In this document: positions 8,904-62,567 of the stretch, piece after piece
Numbering within the stretch: position 1 is the stretch's first letter
How the letters are laid out: each line of letters opens with the position of its first letter
Assembly: GCA_035638075.1 (NCBI GenBank)
Contig: DASRAU010000039.1
Coordinates: 7,010 to 71,009, forward strand
DNA length: 64,000 bases
Source: Verrucomicrobiia bacterium
GTDB taxonomy: Bacteria; Acidobacteriota; Polarisedimenticolia; Gp22-AA2
Direction: 5' to 3'
Notes under the pieces: model-generated
Databases searched by the model: none
What the model was told of the DNA's origin: nothing
What the model saw: the letters and a program-made list of their open reading frames with translations, nothing else
Program-made: the position numbers and the translations under genes

Positions 8904-9815
8904 CTAGCGCCAGTCGTCCACGAGCCAGCGGGATCCTTTCTTCACCAGCGTCAGGGTGCGCGGCGTTCCGTCGAGCGGCCCGGGGCGGCCGGAGACCACG
9001 TCCACCAGGCTCACCTTCGCCACCGCCCCGGTCGTGCCGGACGGATCGAGGGACTGGATGCGGAAGGCGGCGTGGCGCTTGCCTTCCGCCGGGGTGAACA
9101 GACCCTCCAGGCCCGACCCTTTCGCCTCGACCTTCTTCAGGAAGGAATCGGTGAAGAGCGTGCGCGCCGTCGCCAGGTCCCGCTGGCGCCAGGAGCGCAG
9201 CAGCATGCGCAGGGTGGTGACCCCGGGCACGGCGTCCTTCATCCTGAGGTTCTCCGAGCCGGTCTTCGTGAGCGAGCCGACACGCCAGGGTCCGGTCGGG
9301 TCGCGCTGCAGGCGGGCGGTCTCGCTGCGCTGCTCCACCGCTTCCCCCTGGTCTTCCCACAGGGTCCTGATGCCGGCGTTGACGCTCATGGCCCCTGGCT
9401 TCGGCGCGGGTTCCTTGTAATCCCAGGCTGCCAGCCGTACGCCCTTGCGGCCGTTGTAGTTGACCGAGTCGTGGTCGTAGGCGGCCTTCGCCTGCGGCGT
9501 GAGGATCGACTTCAGCTCGCGGATGGTGCGGTAGTCCCGCGAGGCCATGAAGAAGGCCAGCGCCCCCGACGGCGTCTCGCCCGGGTCGGTGGCGGGTGGC
9601 ACCAGCTCTCCCTGCGGACCTTCGGGTGCTCCCGTTTCGCCGGGAGGCGGTTGCGTCGGCGGGGCGGCCGGGTTGTCCGGCGGCACGGGCGGCGGAGTCT
9701 GCGCCCCGGCCGGAGCCAGGCCAAGCAGGATCCCGAACCCCAGGACGAAGAGCAGGGAACGGCGGCGCGGTGCAGAGGACGGTCGCTGACGCTGCGCGAT
9801 GGTCATGGGTCTCAT
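8904..9815 (-). CDS. Hypothetical exported protein with a Tat-like RRRSLLF signal
   Basis: MRPMTIAQRQRPSSAPRRRSLLFVLGFGILLGLAPAGAQ, then a Pro-rich linker and a globular domain. Its start ATG overlaps the stop of the upstream HD gene (ATGA). Confidence 0.6.
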   Translation of the reverse strand: MRPMTIAQRQRPSSAPRRRSLLFVLGFGILLGLAPAGAQTPPPVPPDNPAAPPTQPPPGETGAPEGPQGELVPPATDPGETPSGALAFFMASRDYRTIRELKSILTPQAKAAYDHDSVNYNGRKGVRLAAWDYKEPAPKPGAMSVNAGIRTLWEDQGEAVEQRSETARLQRDPTGPWRVGSLTKTGSENLRMKDAVPGVTTLRMLLRSWRQRDLATARTLFTDSFLKKVEAKGSGLEGLFTPAEGKRHAAFRIQSLDPSGTTGAVAKVSLVDVVSGRPGPLDGTPRTLTLVKKGSRWLVDDWR

Positions 9816-57228: not shown

Positions 57229-57846
57229 ATGTCCTATGAAAACGACCCCCGCGCCACCAATCCCTCGATGGCGCGGACGGAGCGGCGGGCGGAAAGCCCG
57301 GTTCCGGAAGACAGCGGCTCCGGGGCTCCGGCACCGATGACCCGGCAGGATTGGGACAAGGCGCTGGAGGAACTGCACCCCGTGAGCTTTCGCTGGGCCG
57401 TGACCTGCTGTCGCGGGGATCGCGAGGAGGCTCGAGACGTGCTGCAGAGCGTGTACGTGGACGTGCTGGACGGGCGGGCCCGGTTCGACGGCCTCGCCTC
57501 GGTCCAGACGTGGCTCTTCGCCGTCATCCGCCGCACCGCCGCCTCGCGGCGGCGCCGCGGCCTCGTCCGCAGCGTGCTGCTCGGGCAGTGGGCGCGGCGC
57601 CGCCCCGAACCGGTTTCGCCCGACCCGGCCGCGCGCCTGGAGAAGGCCGAGCGCGTCGCCCGCATCCGCGAGGCGATGCGGACCCTGTCGGCGCGCCAGC
57701 GCCAGGTCCTCGAGCTGGTCTTCCATCACGAACTCACCATCGAGGAGGCCGCCGGTGTCCTGGGCATCGGCGTGGGGAGCGCCCGCACGCACTACGAGCG
57801 CGGCAAGCGCGCCCTCCACGATCGCCTCACGGAGGCGGGCCTGTGA
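57229..57846 (+). CDS. ECF (sigma-70 group IV) RNA polymerase sigma factor
   Basis: Region 2 (VLQSVYVDVLDG...WLFAVIRR) and region 4 HTH (LELVFHHELTIEEAAGVLGIGVGSARTHYERGKRAL). Confidence 0.9.
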   Translation: MSYENDPRATNPSMARTERRAESPVPEDSGSGAPAPMTRQDWDKALEELHPVSFRWAVTCCRGDREEARDVLQSVYVDVLDGRARFDGLASVQTWLFAVIRRTAASRRRRGLVRSVLLGQWARRRPEPVSPDPAARLEKAERVARIREAMRTLSARQRQVLELVFHHELTIEEAAGVLGIGVGSARTHYERGKRALHDRLTEAGL

Positions 57847-58325
57847 CCCGGGAGAACGAGCGGCTGCGACGTGTCTTCCACGAGATGCACGATGCCGACC
57901 TTCCGGCGCCGGCGTATGAATCCCCCGACGCTGCGTCGGGCGCACCGGCCGCGTCAGCCTCCACTGCGCGGCCGGTGCGGAAGTCCGCCGTCGGCCGGCC
58001 GGGGCGCACCCCGGTGTTCGCGCGCGCGGCCTGGGCCTTCGCCGCGGCCGCGGCGGCCTGCGCGGTCGTCCTGGCGCTTCGCGACGGCGGCCTGCTCCAC
58101 CCGGCCCCCGGCGCGCCCACGACACCCGGCGAGGACGAGACCGTGCAGCTCGCCGCCACCCTCACCACCTGGGAGGCGCCCACCGATTTCCTCTTGACCA
58201 CACCCGGCGCGGAGTTCCTGCAATCGGCTCCGCGCCTCGGCACCGGAATGGAGACGCTGTCGGGTGACCACGGCGACCTCCTGCAGAACGACAACAACGA
58301 GAACGACACGGAGGTGTACCAATGA
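57843..58325 (+). CDS. Putative anti-sigma factor (single-pass membrane protein)
   Basis: The GTG overlaps the sigma stop (GTGA). Cytoplasmic N-terminus, one TM (AAWAFAAAAAACAVVLAL), short periplasmic tail. Confidence 0.6.
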   Translation: MTRENERLRRVFHEMHDADLPAPAYESPDAASGAPAASASTARPVRKSAVGRPGRTPVFARAAWAFAAAAAACAVVLALRDGGLLHPAPGAPTTPGEDETVQLAATLTTWEAPTDFLLTTPGAEFLQSAPRLGTGMETLSGDHGDLLQNDNNENDTEVYQ

Positions 58326-58894
58326 AGAAGCTTTTCCTCGTCGCCGCCCTGGTCGCATCCGCGACCGTCGTCATCGCCCAGGCCCGCCCATGGGGCCGTG
58401 AAGGCGGCCCTCCCGGCGGTCCCGGCGCCTTCGGCGGGCCGCGCGCCGAGATCATGGGAGAGCTGTTCTCGCCCGAGCTGGTGATGCGCCACCAGGAGGA
58501 GATCGGGCTCAGCGCCGATCAGAAGTCGAAGCTGATCAAGGCCACGCAGGCGCTGCAGACCGATCTCGTGCCGCTGCAGTTCGAGATGGGCGAAGCGAGC
58601 GGCAAGCTGCGCGACGCCCTCGCCCAGCCGACCATCGACGAGCAGAAGGCCGGTGACCTGGCCGACCACCTCATGACCCTCGAAACAAAGATCAAGAAGC
58701 GCCACCTGACCACGATGATCCAGGTCAAGAACGCCCTCACGCCGGAGCAGCAGGATCGCCTGAAGGCCCTGCGCGAGCAGGATCGCGCCGAGCGCCGCGC
58801 CCGGCGCGGCGACCGCGGCGGCCCGCCCGACGGCGGCGCCGGCGCCCCGCCGGACGGCGGCGGCGACGACCTGGCCCCGGAGCCCGGCAACTAG
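58322..58894 (+). CDS. Spy/CpxP-family (LTxxQ) periplasmic stress protein
   Basis: Signal peptide, LTPEQQ motif, helical charged repeats. The ATG overlaps the upstream stop (ATGA). Confidence 0.75.
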   Translation: MKKLFLVAALVASATVVIAQARPWGREGGPPGGPGAFGGPRAEIMGELFSPELVMRHQEEIGLSADQKSKLIKATQALQTDLVPLQFEMGEASGKLRDALAQPTIDEQKAGDLADHLMTLETKIKKRHLTTMIQVKNALTPEQQDRLKALREQDRAERRARRGDRGGPPDGGAGAPPDGGGDDLAPEPGN

Positions 58895-58998
58895 AACCGC
58901 CGCCCCTCCCCCGCGCCCCGAAGGGACCGGACCGACCCGGCCCGACGGGGCGCGGGCGCTTCGAGACGCTGCCGGACGCGTCCGCGGCGCATCTCCGC

Positions 58999-59028
58999 TT
59001 GACGCCTCCCCGCCACCGCGGGTACAGT
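58999..59028 (+). promoter_or_regulatory. Sigma70-like promoter candidate for the padR operon
   Basis: TTGACG (58999-59004), an 18-bp spacer, then TACAGT (59023-59028). Confidence 0.5.
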
Positions 59029-59032
59029 CGCC

Positions 59033-59079
59033 TCCACTTGACTGTCTAGTGGAACGTCTCCACTCGACGGTCGAGTGGA
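59033..59079. promoter_or_regulatory. Tandem palindromic operator sites (TCCACT-N9-AGTGGA ×2), likely PadR autoregulatory operators
   Basis: Site 1 is TCCACTtgactgtctAGTGGA (59033-59053). Site 2 is TCCACTCGACgGTCGAGTGGA, a perfect 21-bp palindrome (59059-59079). They lie immediately downstream of the -10 and 10 nt before the padR GTG. Confidence 0.55.
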
Positions 59080-59088
59080 GGGCACCGC

Positions 59089-59433
59089 GTGGGCACACAA
59101 CCCGCCAAGGACAGGTCGGCCGGGCTCGTCCAGGGCACGCTCGACATGCTCATCCTCAAGACGCTGGCGCTCGAGGCGATGCACAGCTACGACATCGGCG
59201 CCCGCCTCGCCCGCGTCAGCCAGGGGGTGTTCGTCGTCAACCCGGGGTCGCTCTTCCCCGCCTTCCGGCGGCTGGAGCGCTCCGGCCTCATCCGCGGCGA
59301 GTGGCGTGACACCGAGAACAACCGCCGCGCCCGCTACTACAGCCTGACCTCGCGCGGCCGCAAGCGCCTCGGCGACGAGACGAAGCACTGGCGCCGCCTC
59401 TCCGGCGCCATCGCGCGCGTCCTGGAGGCCTGA
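59089..59433 (+). CDS. PadR-family transcriptional regulator
   Basis: [25 protein letters not shown]...[19 protein letters not shown]...[10 protein letters not shown] is a canonical PadR winged HTH. Confidence 0.9.
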
Positions 59434-62042
59434 TGGACGCCCTCGGCCGGTTCTTCCGCGGTCTGCGCGCCCTCTTCCGGCGCGATCGCGACGACCACGA
59501 GCTCGACGAAGAGCTGCGCGCTTACGCCGACGACTCGGCGGCCGCGCACGCGCGCGCCGGGATGGACCCCGCCGCCGCGCGGCGCGCCGCCGGCGTGGAG
59601 ATGGGCTCCGCCGAGGCGGTCAAGGACCACGTGCGCGACGTCGGCTGGGAAACGCATTTCGACTCGCTCCTGCGCGACCTGCGCTACGGGGCGCGGATCC
59701 TTTTCCGACACCCCGGGTTCTCCGCCGCGGCCATCCTCACCCTGGCGCTCGGCGTCGGCGCCAACACGGCGCTGTTCAGCGTGGTGAACGCGGTCCTCCT
59801 GAAGCCGCTCCCCTATCCGGACGACGACCGCCTGGTGACGCTCGCGGGAACGCATTCGGTTCCCGACGTCGCCGACCTCGCCACCCTGTCGAAGTCGTTC
59901 ACGGCGATGGGGACCCTGGCGCGCTGGGATGCCGACCTCGTCGGCGAGGGGGAGCCGGAGCGGATCTTCGCCGAGCTGGCCGGAGAGGACACCTTCAAGG
60001 CGCTCGCGGTCCCGGCGGCGATCGGGCGGACCTTCGACGCCCGTGACGACCAGGCGCGCGCGCCGGTCGTGATCCTGAGTGACGGGTTCTGGCGCAGCCA
60101 TCTCGCCGCCGACCCGGCGGTCATCGGAAGAAAACTGACGCTCAGCGGCAAGGTGTACGACGTGATCGGCGTGATGCCTCCCGGTTTCCGGACCCCGTTC
60201 AACGGGTCGGCCGCGCAGCTCTGGGTGCCTTTCCGGTTCGGCTACCCCGAGGCGGCCGAGGCGCGCGGCGCCCACTTCACCAACCCGGTGGCCCGGCTCG
60301 CCCCTCATGTCACGCTGGCCGCGGCCCGGGCCGAGCTCGAGCTTTTGGGCCGGCGCCTGGCCGAGGCCCACCCGGACGAGGCCCGCACCTTCGTGCCCGA
60401 GCCGTTGCGCGACCGCGTCAATGGAGAGATCCGCCGGCCGCTCCTGCTGCTGTTCGCGGCGGTGTCGCTCGTTTTGCTCGTCGCCTGCGCCAACTACGCG
60501 TCGCTCCTTCTGGCCCGCGGCGCCGGGCGCGGGGCCGAGATGCGCCTGCGACGGGCGCTGGGCGCCGGGCGCGGCCGGCTGGTGCGCCAGCTCGTCACCG
60601 AGAGCGCGCTCCTGTCGCTTCTCGGCGGCCTGGCCGGCGCGCTCCTCGCGAGCCTCGGCCTGCGTGCTCTGGCGGCGCTTCGACCCGAGGGACTGCCGGC
60701 GGTCAATCCGATCGGGCTCGACCTCGACGCTCTCGCCTTCGCGCTGCTCGCGTCGTTCGTCACCGGACTCGCGTTCGGTGCGGCCCCGGCGTGGCAGGCG
60801 GCGCGCGGCGGCGAGCGGCCGCCGGCCTCGTCCACGACGAGCGCCGCGACCTCACCCCTGCGGCGCGGCCTCGTGGTCGCGCAGCTGGCGCTGGCGCTGG
60901 TCCTCCTGACGGGAGCGGGCCTGCTGATGCGCTCGTTCGCGATCCTGCTCGCCCAGCCGAGCGGCTTCCAGCCGGCCGGGGTGCTGACGATGCGGCTGCA
61001 GCTGCCGGCGGCGCGCTACGACTCGATCCCGTCGCAGCAGGCGTTCCTGTCGCGGCTCGAGGAAGGACTACGCGACCTGCCGGGCGCGCGCGCCGCCGGG
61101 CTCGTCTCCGAGCTGCCGCTTTCCGGCTGGCGGATGATGCACAACATGATCGTCGAGGGGCAGCCCCAGGTTCCCGAAGGCCAGGAGCCGGAGATCTACA
61201 CGCACGAGGTGAGCCCCGGCTACTTCGCCGCCGCGGGAACGCCGATCGTGCGCGGCCGCGGCATCGCCGTCTCCGATGCGCCCGGCGCGGCGCTCGTGGG
61301 CGTGGTCAACGAGGCGTTCGTGCGCCGCTTCGCGCCCGATCGCGACCCTTTGGGGATGCGGGCGCGCTGGGCCCGCGCCGATCCGAACGCCTGGATGACC
61401 ATCGTGGGCGTCGTCGGCGATGCGCGCTTCGAGAGCCTGGGCGAGGAGCAATCCCCGACCATCTACACGCCCTTTCTCCAGAAGCAGCAGCCGTGGAAGC
61501 GCTGGACCGCCGTCGTCATCCGCACCGCGGGAGGCGATCCGATGGCCTTCGCGGAGCGGGTCCGGCAGGACGTGCGGCGCCTCGACCCGGCGCTGCCGAT
61601 CACCGAGGTCCGGCCGATGTCCGCGGTGCTTCTCTCGTCGGTCAGCGACCGGCGCTTCAATCTCATCCTGCTGTCGGCCTTCGCCGGCCTGGCGTTCGGC
61701 CTGGCCGCGGTCGGCGTCTACGGCGTGCTGGCGCACCTCGTGGCGCAGCGGTCGCGCGAGGTCGGGGTGCGCATGGCGCTCGGCGCCCGGCGTCTCGACG
61801 TCCTGTGGCTCATGCTGCGCCAGGGCCTGCCGCTCATCGGCCTCGGCATCGCCGGCGGGACGCTCGCCGCCCTGGCCTCGACGCACCTGATGCGGAGCCT
61901 GCTCTACGGCATCGGACCCGGCGATCCCCTGACCTTCGTCGCCGCGGCCGCCTGCCTGGCCCTCGTCGGCGTGCTCGCGAGCCTGATCCCGGCGCAGCGG
62001 GCGGCGCGCGTCGATCCCTGCATCGCCCTGCGCGCCGAATAG
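59433..62042 (+). CDS. ADOP-family duplicated FtsX/MacB-like ABC transporter permease
   Basis: 869 aa with a MacB-like periplasmic domain and two FtsX 4-TM modules. The N-terminal [31 protein letters not shown] is typical of Acidobacterial ADOP permeases found downstream of padR. Confidence 0.9.
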
Positions 62043-62079: not shown

Positions 62080-62358
62080 CTAGACGGCGTACTGGTTCAG
62101 GATGTGCTCGATCTCGGCCGTCGTGAAGTCATTCAGGCCGATGACCCGGGTCTCGGGACGCAGCGTCGGCGGCACGATGTTGCGGGCGTCATCGCGGCTG
62201 TCCACGTCGGCGATGAACCACGCCTTGTGGACGCCGTCCTTGCAGCCCCAGTCGGCGTGCGTCAGGAAGTGCGAACCGGTCTTGAGGAAGATGTCCACGA
62301 CCCGCGCGCACGGCACCATCCCCGCATCGTGCGGAACCTCGACCAGAAATCTCGCCAT
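62080..62358 (-). CDS. Hypothetical small protein (~93 aa)
   Basis: MARFLVEVPHDAGMVPCARVVDIFLKTGSHFLTHADWGC... Start at an internal Met of the track ORF. No confident family. Confidence 0.45.
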   Translation of the reverse strand: MARFLVEVPHDAGMVPCARVVDIFLKTGSHFLTHADWGCKDGVHKAWFIADVDSRDDARNIVPPTLRPETRVIGLNDFTTAEIEHILNQYAV

Positions 62359-62567
62359 GGCTCTGTCTCCTTGATGAGGACACCAGAGGGTGGTGACCGA
62401 CGCCCAATCTACGGCATCGACGTGGCTGGAGACTTGCCCCGGAGACCGTCGCTCTTTGCCGGGCGTCCGGAGCATGCGGCCGAGCGACCCGTAGTACCCT
62501 GCGATCACCGGATCACGAACCCGATGCGGCCGGCCGAAGCGGCGCCGCATTTCGCACAGGAGACCTC

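Follow-up and report, generated by a model that had tools for sequence, protein, structure and literature searches.

A conserved palindrome at the promoter of an acidobacterial padR–ADOP permease operon as a probable PadR operator

A padR gene and an ADOP permease gene form an operon

The window, by which we mean the whole 64-kb stretch of DNA analysed, carries a padR gene and, next to it on the same strand, a gene for a duplicated MacB/FtsX-type permease (Table 1). The padR product scores 128.8 bits with TIGR03433 (padR_acidobact; cut-off 101.8) and 64.8 bits with the Pfam PadR family (PF03551; gathering cut-off 27), whereas the permease, which has two MacB_PCD and two FtsX stretches, scores 864.7 bits with TIGR03434 (ADOP; cut-off 622.3). 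Both members of the TIGR03433/TIGR03434 pair are therefore above the curated NCBIfam cut-offs, and the padR–ADOP pair that a sequence-only reading of this DNA had proposed is borne out. The same reading had assigned the pair to the Acidobacteria, in agreement with the nearest database protein (98% identical), which is named Candidatus Polarisedimenticolia bacterium; Candidatus Polarisedimenticolia is a class of Acidobacteriota. The stop codon of padR and the start codon of the permease gene share one base (TGATG, at 59433), and on this overlap the two genes form an operon. The GTG start of padR is confirmed by L179, one of the loci fetched for comparison, which has an ATG at exactly this position. 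The order padR–ADOP is also found in L161, L163, L167, L168, L171, L174 and L177, and no other copy of padR or of an ADOP gene is present in the 64-kb window.

Table 1. Coordinates of the features at the padR–ADOP locus (positions in the window)
Feature	Position	Strand	Description and basis
−35 hexamer TTGACG	58999..59004	+	Part of the sole promoter-like match in 58000–60000
−10 hexamer TACAGT	59023..59028	+	18-nt spacer after the −35 hexamer; promoter scan
Left half-site look-alike, CTCCGCTTGAC	58993..59003	+	Overlaps the −35 hexamer; 10 of 11 positions match the left half of site 1
Operator 1 (putative), CTCCACTTGACTGTCTAGTGGAA	59032..59054	.	Imperfect 23-bp palindrome; repeat analysis, orthologues, 21.8 bits
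Operator 2 (putative), CTCCACTCGACGGTCGAGTGGAG	59058..59080	.	Perfect 23-bp palindrome; repeat analysis, 18.2 bits
Shine-Dalgarno sequence GGAGG	59077..59081	+	7 nt before GTG; overlaps the right arm of operator 2
padR	59089..59433	+	114 aa, PadR subfamily-2, TIGR03433 family; profile scores, predicted fold
ADOP permease gene	59433..62042	+	869 aa, duplicated MacB/FtsX-type; TIGR03434, domain matches

The duplicated MacB_PCD/FtsX core of the permease is preceded at the N-terminus (59433–59640) by a match to 'permease prefix domain 1' (NF038403, 41 bits). The operon has no ATPase gene, and the next gene (62080–62550) lies on the opposite strand. Upstream of padR, positions 57229–58894 are occupied by an operon for an ECF sigma factor (57229–57846), a protein of about 160 residues, possibly an anti-sigma factor, and a Metal_resist/LTXXQ protein (58322–58894); this synteny is shared by L161 and L163/L164 and is not found in more distant orthologues.

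In an AlphaFold model of the PadR protein (pLDDT 84), a winged helix-turn-helix leads into a long C-terminal helix; helices span residues 15–28, 33–43, 52–64 and 88–113, and strands 68–74 and 80–86. The best structural matches (TM-scores 0.7–0.8) are all PadR proteins of subfamily-2, namely Brachyspira PadR, LftR, LmrR, Rv3488 and BC4206. Members of this subfamily are single-domain proteins of about 11–13 kDa, in which the winged helix-turn-helix precedes a single long C-terminal helix that serves for dimerisation (PMC5728393), and the Pfam match together with the predicted single-domain fold places the window protein among them. Y34 aligns with the first canonical tyrosine (Tyr20 of Bacillus subtilis PadR), whereas the conserved Tyr42 is replaced by Phe56, a phenylalanine that does not vary in the 40 nearest homologues; the wing carries the basic residues R79, R80 and R82, possible counterparts of B. 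subtilis Lys67. Residues 17–108 align without gaps to residues 12–103 of LmrR, which brings W101 (codon 59389–59391), invariant in 40 homologues, onto Trp96 and W72 onto Trp67. In LmrR it is Trp96 on which bound drugs stack, and the alignment of W101 and W72 may by analogy point to a ligand pocket of the LmrR type at the dimer interface.

A sigma-70-type promoter precedes padR

A scan of positions 58000–60000 returned a single promoter-like match, TTGACG-N18-TACAGT, against 0.0 expected by chance; the two hexamers match the sigma-70 consensus at 9 of 12 positions and are spaced within the 16–18 nt range. In eight aligned orthologous upstream regions both elements stand out as unvarying blocks, CTTGAC at the −35 and GTA.AGTC at the −10, with the −10 hexamer reading either TACAGT or TAGAGT. 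Hexamers, spacing and conservation among orthologues all agree with a sigma-70 promoter, and the near-consensus promoter of the earlier reading is found where it had been placed. The usual distance from the −10 hexamer to the start of transcription is about 7 nt, which would put the start near 59035–59037.

Sixteen nucleotides past the stop codon of the upstream gene lies a GC-rich inverted repeat with arms of 21 nt (58910–58956). With a folding energy of −49.2 kcal/mol (z = −3.7) as RNA, it resembles a terminator, though one without a run of T; such a terminator-like repeat supports padR having a promoter of its own.

Two palindromic sites follow the promoter

Between the promoter and padR lie two palindromes, both fitting the pattern TCCACTnGACnGTCnAGTGGA. 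The earlier reading had noted TCCACT-N9-AGTGGA within 5 nt of the −10 hexamer, followed by a second copy, and both are there: the core of site 1 (TCCACTTGACTGTCTAGTGGA, 59033–59053) begins 4 nt after the −10 hexamer and that of site 2 (TCCACTCGACGGTCGAGTGGA, 59059–59079) 5 nt after the end of TCCACTTGACTGTCTAGTGGA. Site 1 is more than a match of six and six bases, being palindromic along its full length with 9 of 10 arm pairs, and the perfect 21-bp palindrome described for the second copy extends to 23 bp. The centres of the two sites, at 59043 and 59069, are 26 bp apart, or about 2.5 helical turns, as had been proposed. The padR start codon had been placed 10 nt beyond site 2; a GTG does follow the site closely, with 9 nt between the 21-bp palindrome and the codon.

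Repeat analysis aligns the two copies over 25 nt at a period of 26 bp, and because the repeat unit takes in 4 nt upstream of each site, we regard the arrangement as a 26-bp tandem duplication. Relative to the predicted start of transcription, site 1 would span about −4 to +19, whereas site 2, from about +23 to +45, would fall within the transcribed leader.

Allowing one mismatch, the palindrome pattern occurs twice in the 64-kb window, both times here, against 0.04 occurrences expected, and in none of 100 shuffled windows did it occur two or more times. With a weight matrix for the TIGR03433 family (see below), site 1 scores 21.8 bits and site 2 scores 18.2 bits. The next best match in the window, considered as a further member of a regulon, was set aside since its 11.3 bits (at 9120) are near the control maximum of 10.2 bits. 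The canonical PadR box, ATGT-N8-ACAT, is absent from the region 58895–59088 and from the entire 64-kb window.

Site 1 is conserved among orthologues and site 2 is labile

Orthologues of the window PadR with 82–98% protein identity provided 12 distinct upstream regions, eight of which were used in the alignment. Unvarying columns fall into three blocks, the CTTGAC and GTA.AGTC blocks of the promoter and site 1, whereas the spacer and the flanks drift. Site 1 is kept in all 12 regions and starts 3–4 nt past the −10 hexamer. The genes upstream of the pair vary, from the ECF sigma factor/Metal_resist operon (window, L161 and L163) to a DUF2911/TPR gene (L165) or a PadR gene (L167 and L168), and the site stays with padR–ADOP despite these changes. 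In L167 (2409–2966, PF03551) and L168 (1–468, Vir_act_alpha_C), the gene directly upstream of the pair codes for a second, longer PadR-type protein.

The second site has a patchier distribution. Two sites with a 26-bp spacing are present in the window, in L161 (98% identity) and in L179/L180 (94%), and two sites with a 24-bp spacing in L163/L164 (92%); L162 (94%) has a single site, as do L001, L002, L165–L170 and L181 (82–90%). The junction between the copies reads 'acgtc' in the window and in L179/L180, and 'gcgtt' in L161. In identity matrices the window, L161 and L162 group together, then with L163, as against the remaining loci. Taken with this grouping, the patchy occurrence of site 2 indicates that the duplication arose within the subclade and was lost at least once, or that it arose repeatedly. 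Operator 1 is the ancestral promoter-proximal site and operator 2 a tandem 26-bp duplicate of it; as read from the alignments, the tandem arrangement is an evolutionarily labile, clade-specific duplication and not a fixed design.

These observations raise the question of whether operator 1 alone is functional, operator 2 being a recent neutral duplicate produced by slippage. Site 2 is missing from L162, which is nested among two-site orthologues, and from all the more distant orthologues; its spacing depends on the lineage (26 or 24 bp), and 26 bp corresponds to about 2.5 helical turns. However, site 2 is a perfect palindrome that scores 18.2 bits, and the differences seen in it among the window, L161, L179 and L163 fall mostly at weakly constrained positions, the exception being one more-conserved position in L163. 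Moreover, PadR-family promoters with several sites are known, as with the bsPadR-1 and bsPadR-2 sites (PMC5728393) or the several LmrR dimers on PlmrR (PMC4534193). We therefore regard a functionless second site as rather unlikely, though a serious candidate, and favour a role for both operators.

A related palindrome lies upstream of padR genes across the TIGR03433 family

A wider sample consisted of 158 regions upstream of TIGR03433-like genes with less than 75% identity; their sources are Acidobacteriota, Gemmatimonadota and a small number of assemblies that carry other labels. A blind enumeration of palindromic words found TCCT-N13-AGGA in 45 of the 158 regions and in none of the 156 coding controls, and the enrichment extended to nested words such as CTCC-N15-GGAG and CTTG-N5-CAAG. 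Iteration of a symmetric 25-nt matrix led to the consensus tCTCCTCTTGAC-a-GTCAAGAGGAGa, and a related palindrome, CTCCTCTTGAC-n-GTCAAGAGGAG, precedes 144 of these 158 more distant padR genes, scoring in each case above the maximum of all coding controls, a hit rate that is partly circular because the matrix was trained on the regions that it scores. The tests free of this circularity are the word enumeration and the scarcity of matches away from padR starts: the 802 kb of fetched loci contain 261 matches that reach 14 bits, and all but two of them (259) fall between −130 and +20 relative to a padR-like start. The site thus tracks padR genes and is rare elsewhere, as expected of an autoregulatory operator.

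A layout common to the family also emerges from these loci. Two sites are present in 109 of the 170 fetched upstream regions (orthologues included), mostly spaced by 32–34 bp. Among the distinct two-site family loci (<75% identity), the upstream site contains the −35 sequence TTGAC in 88 of 94; a TAnnnT follows 16–18 nt downstream in 57 of those 88, and 45 of these TAnnnT hexamers extend two bases into the downstream site, the right arm of which usually runs into the Shine-Dalgarno sequence. The window clade differs from this layout: its −10 hexamer stops 3 nt short of the proximal site, where the family has an overlap of 2 nt (a shift of 5 bp), and its upstream site is cut to a half-site, some members having a tandem proximal copy. 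A 69%-identical paralogue, L171, also named Polarisedimenticolia, has the standard family layout with TCCTCT half-sites.

The half-site in question is CTCCGCTTGAC, which overlaps the −35 hexamer. A third full operator at this position was considered and dropped: only a look-alike of the left half is present, its right half is missing, and the family matrix gives the region less than 8 bits. CTCCGCTTGAC is probably a remnant of the upstream operator of the family (site A), the one in which the −35 is embedded.

In some assemblies, padR paralogues have near-identical two-site operators, as seen upstream of position 3001 in L090, L093 and L097 (JBATVK01) and in L082 and L089 (CAVPLA01). Such similarity among paralogues makes cross-regulation of PadR–ADOP modules possible.

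The palindromes are better explained as DNA sites than as RNA structures

Palindromes in a leader could act mainly as RNA, forming hairpins that govern padR translation, either by hiding the Shine-Dalgarno sequence or by stabilising the mRNA. The leader from 59035 does fold into a long hairpin in which site 1 pairs with site 2 (−36.7 kcal/mol, z = −4.0), and site 2 alone forms a stem of 10–11 pairs that takes in part of GGAGG (−20.8 kcal/mol, z = −2.5). However, any pair of DNA palindromes would fold in this way, so that the fold is not independent evidence, and the leaders of single-site orthologues fold no better than shuffled sequences (z = −1.5 and −0.35). Moreover, the predicted start of transcription falls inside the left arm of site 1, which would truncate that arm in the RNA, and the upstream site of the family lies over the −35 and is not transcribed.

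The pattern of variation also points to recognition of the bases. Base identity and not pairing is conserved, since a change at position 8 of the 23-mer is not made up for at position 16 or the reverse (T/T, C/T, A/T, C/G), and mismatches within 241 distinct sites have no bias towards G:U (269 G:T against 289 A:C). An Rfam scan of 58800–59300, with E values up to 10 accepted, returned matches at chance level only, the best having an E value of 3.6 and 15 bits against a gathering score of 52. The overlap between the right arm of the proximal site and the Shine-Dalgarno sequence, regular across the family, would fit a role in translation; GGAGG likewise overlaps the right arm of the one site in single-site orthologues. 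In L163 (2810–2913), an extra leader of about 40 nt, with its own Shine-Dalgarno sequence (GGGGAGGA), lies between site 2 and the start codon, and this separate Shine-Dalgarno sequence indicates that the overlap is not obligatory. We thus consider it very unlikely that the palindromes work mainly as RNA, and retain their reading as DNA operators; the hairpin of operator 2 may secondarily dampen translation.

The half-site variant of the window clade and the adjacent PadR

Compared to the family consensus, the arms of the window sites have essentially one symmetric difference, an A for T at position 5 and a T for A at position 19 of the 23-mer, so that the half-site reads TCCACT in the clade and TCCTCT in the family. 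The A/T combination at positions 5/19 is common to the 13 loci of the window clade, the remaining family having mainly T/A. Conserved within the 23-mer are T2, C3, C4, G9 and A10, along with their mirror positions. The Tyr-to-Phe change at residue 56, or Phe59/Arg60, was considered as the cause of the variant and rejected: in the nearest non-orthologues (L174, L176 and L177, 70–75% identity) the recognition helix is identical and the operators are of the family type, with TCCTCT. The recognition helix therefore does not explain the variant. Residues specific to the clade are found instead in helix α2, which reads HSYDI...RLAR as against HGYGI...RIEQ (S33, D35, A41 and R42). In B. subtilis PadR, this helix begins with a conserved tyrosine that contacts the DNA (PMC5728393). 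Because the correlation between operator and helix α2 comes from a single clade, it amounts to one evolutionary event and is suggestive only.

We also considered whether the palindromes could be bound by another regulator, either a paralogous PadR from another place in the genome or an unrelated factor, the adjacent PadR having other targets. Cross-binding is made plausible by the near-identical operators of same-assembly paralogues (L090/L093/L097 and L082/L089), and a second candidate regulator is encoded in L167 and L168 by the longer PadR gene immediately upstream of the pair. However, the motif is nearly confined to TIGR03433 genes, with 259 of 261 matches at padR-like starts, across phyla and with varied neighbours; the TCCACT variant goes together with the clade-specific substitutions in helix α2 of the PadR encoded next to it; and the 64-kb window has no other padR gene. 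Binding by a different regulator is for these reasons highly improbable, and the adjacent PadR remains our preferred candidate for the protein that binds both operators.

Proposed regulation of the padR–ADOP operon

We consider it likely, from the arrangement and conservation of the elements described above, that a sigma-70-type promoter drives the padR–ADOP operon and that the palindromes are operators through which the adjacent PadR represses its own synthesis. The predicted transcription start of the regulator's own gene falls within a dyad site, and throughout the orthologues this site begins 3–4 nt past the −10 hexamer. There are precedents for such regulation: dimers of PadR-family repressors bind palindromic DNA, and LmrR controls its own expression beside its transporter genes (PMC5728393, PMC4534193). 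RNA polymerase would use the promoter at 58999–59028 and start near 59036; a PadR dimer on operator 1 would block the formation of the open complex or promoter escape, and binding of a second dimer to operator 2 would raise occupancy or form a roadblock. By analogy with LmrR (PMC4534193), the two genes would be induced when a ligand frees the DNA of the repressor; the sensing site is probably an LmrR-like pocket between the subunits, at W101. We infer where transcription starts, that the adjacent PadR binds here, that it represses and does not activate, and that a ligand induces the operon; repression of a promoter by the product of its own operon is a textbook mechanism.

The earlier reading had both sites occluding the start of transcription under autorepression. 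The conserved, padR-linked palindromes agree with autorepression, and only site 1 covers the predicted start. The gap between the two 23-mers is 3 bp, and since 26 bp corresponds to about 2.5 turns, dimers on the two operators would point to nearly opposite sides of the helix, an arrangement that does not favour simple same-face cooperativity. Other observations that weigh against the proposed reading are that site 2 is dispensable in close relatives, that Phe56 stands at the position of Tyr42, and that there is no canonical PadR box.

A wider scheme, which we put forward as speculative and rather unlikely, is that the many PadR–ADOP modules of Acidobacteriota and Gemmatimonadota share one promoter–operator cassette, with a 23-bp palindrome around the −35 and a second one over the start of transcription and the Shine-Dalgarno sequence, and that paralogous repressors within a cell cross-regulate one another's permeases as a network. 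The window clade would have escaped from this network through the change from TCCTCT to TCCACT, the accompanying changes in helix α2 (HGYGI...RIEQ to HSYDI...RLAR) and the loss of the −35 site in favour of a tandem proximal copy; the leader palindrome may in addition dampen translation as a hairpin.

Few gene pairs have expanded as much in soil Acidobacteriota and Gemmatimonadota as TIGR03433 PadR and ADOP. The present analysis gives this large family of regulators a promoter and a testable operator consensus, together with a natural specificity variant (A versus T at position 5) with matching changes in the protein, and with natural one-site and two-site promoters. Consensus and natural variants open the family to EMSA, reporter assays and ligand screens.

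Comparison with known systems

One close parallel is LmrR of Lactococcus lactis (PlmrR–PlmrCD). As in that system, the window PadR is predicted to be a single-domain protein of about 110 residues with a winged helix-turn-helix and a C-terminal dimerisation helix, its gene lies directly upstream of a membrane transporter gene, and palindromes are found at its own promoter; for LmrR, more than one dimer per promoter has been documented (PMC4534193). The two proteins share about 25–27% identity. The operators differ: that of the window is a 23-bp CTCCACTyGAC-n-GTCkAGTGGAG and not ATGT-N8-ACAT, the inverted repeat that forms the canonical PadR box (PMC4517056). The partners also differ, an 'orphan' duplicated MacB/FtsX-type permease without an ATPase gene in the window and a heterodimeric ABC exporter in the case of LmrR.

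The B. subtilis PadR/padC system, for which the structure of a DNA complex has been solved, also has two operator sequences in one promoter, and its PadR has an aromatic residue at the start of helix α2 (Tyr20 there, Y34 here). The B. subtilis PadR dimer reads its palindrome through two winged helix-turn-helix domains, with Tyr20 in contact with the DNA (PMC5728393). Unlike the window protein, it belongs to subfamily-1 and is a two-domain protein of 19–22 kDa with its effector bound between the domains; moreover, the window PadR has Phe56 in place of Tyr42, and the operators of the two systems differ in sequence and length.

A full-text literature search returned no binding, footprint or transcription-start data for TIGR03433 members and nothing on the regulation of ADOP, TIGR03433 or PadR with MacB/FtsX, nor any description of an operator, promoter or substrate. 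In scores and adjacency, the window genes match the TIGR03433/TIGR03434 pair as defined in NCBIfam/TIGRFAMs, and to this pair the present analysis adds the family palindrome and the two-site layout with an embedded −35.
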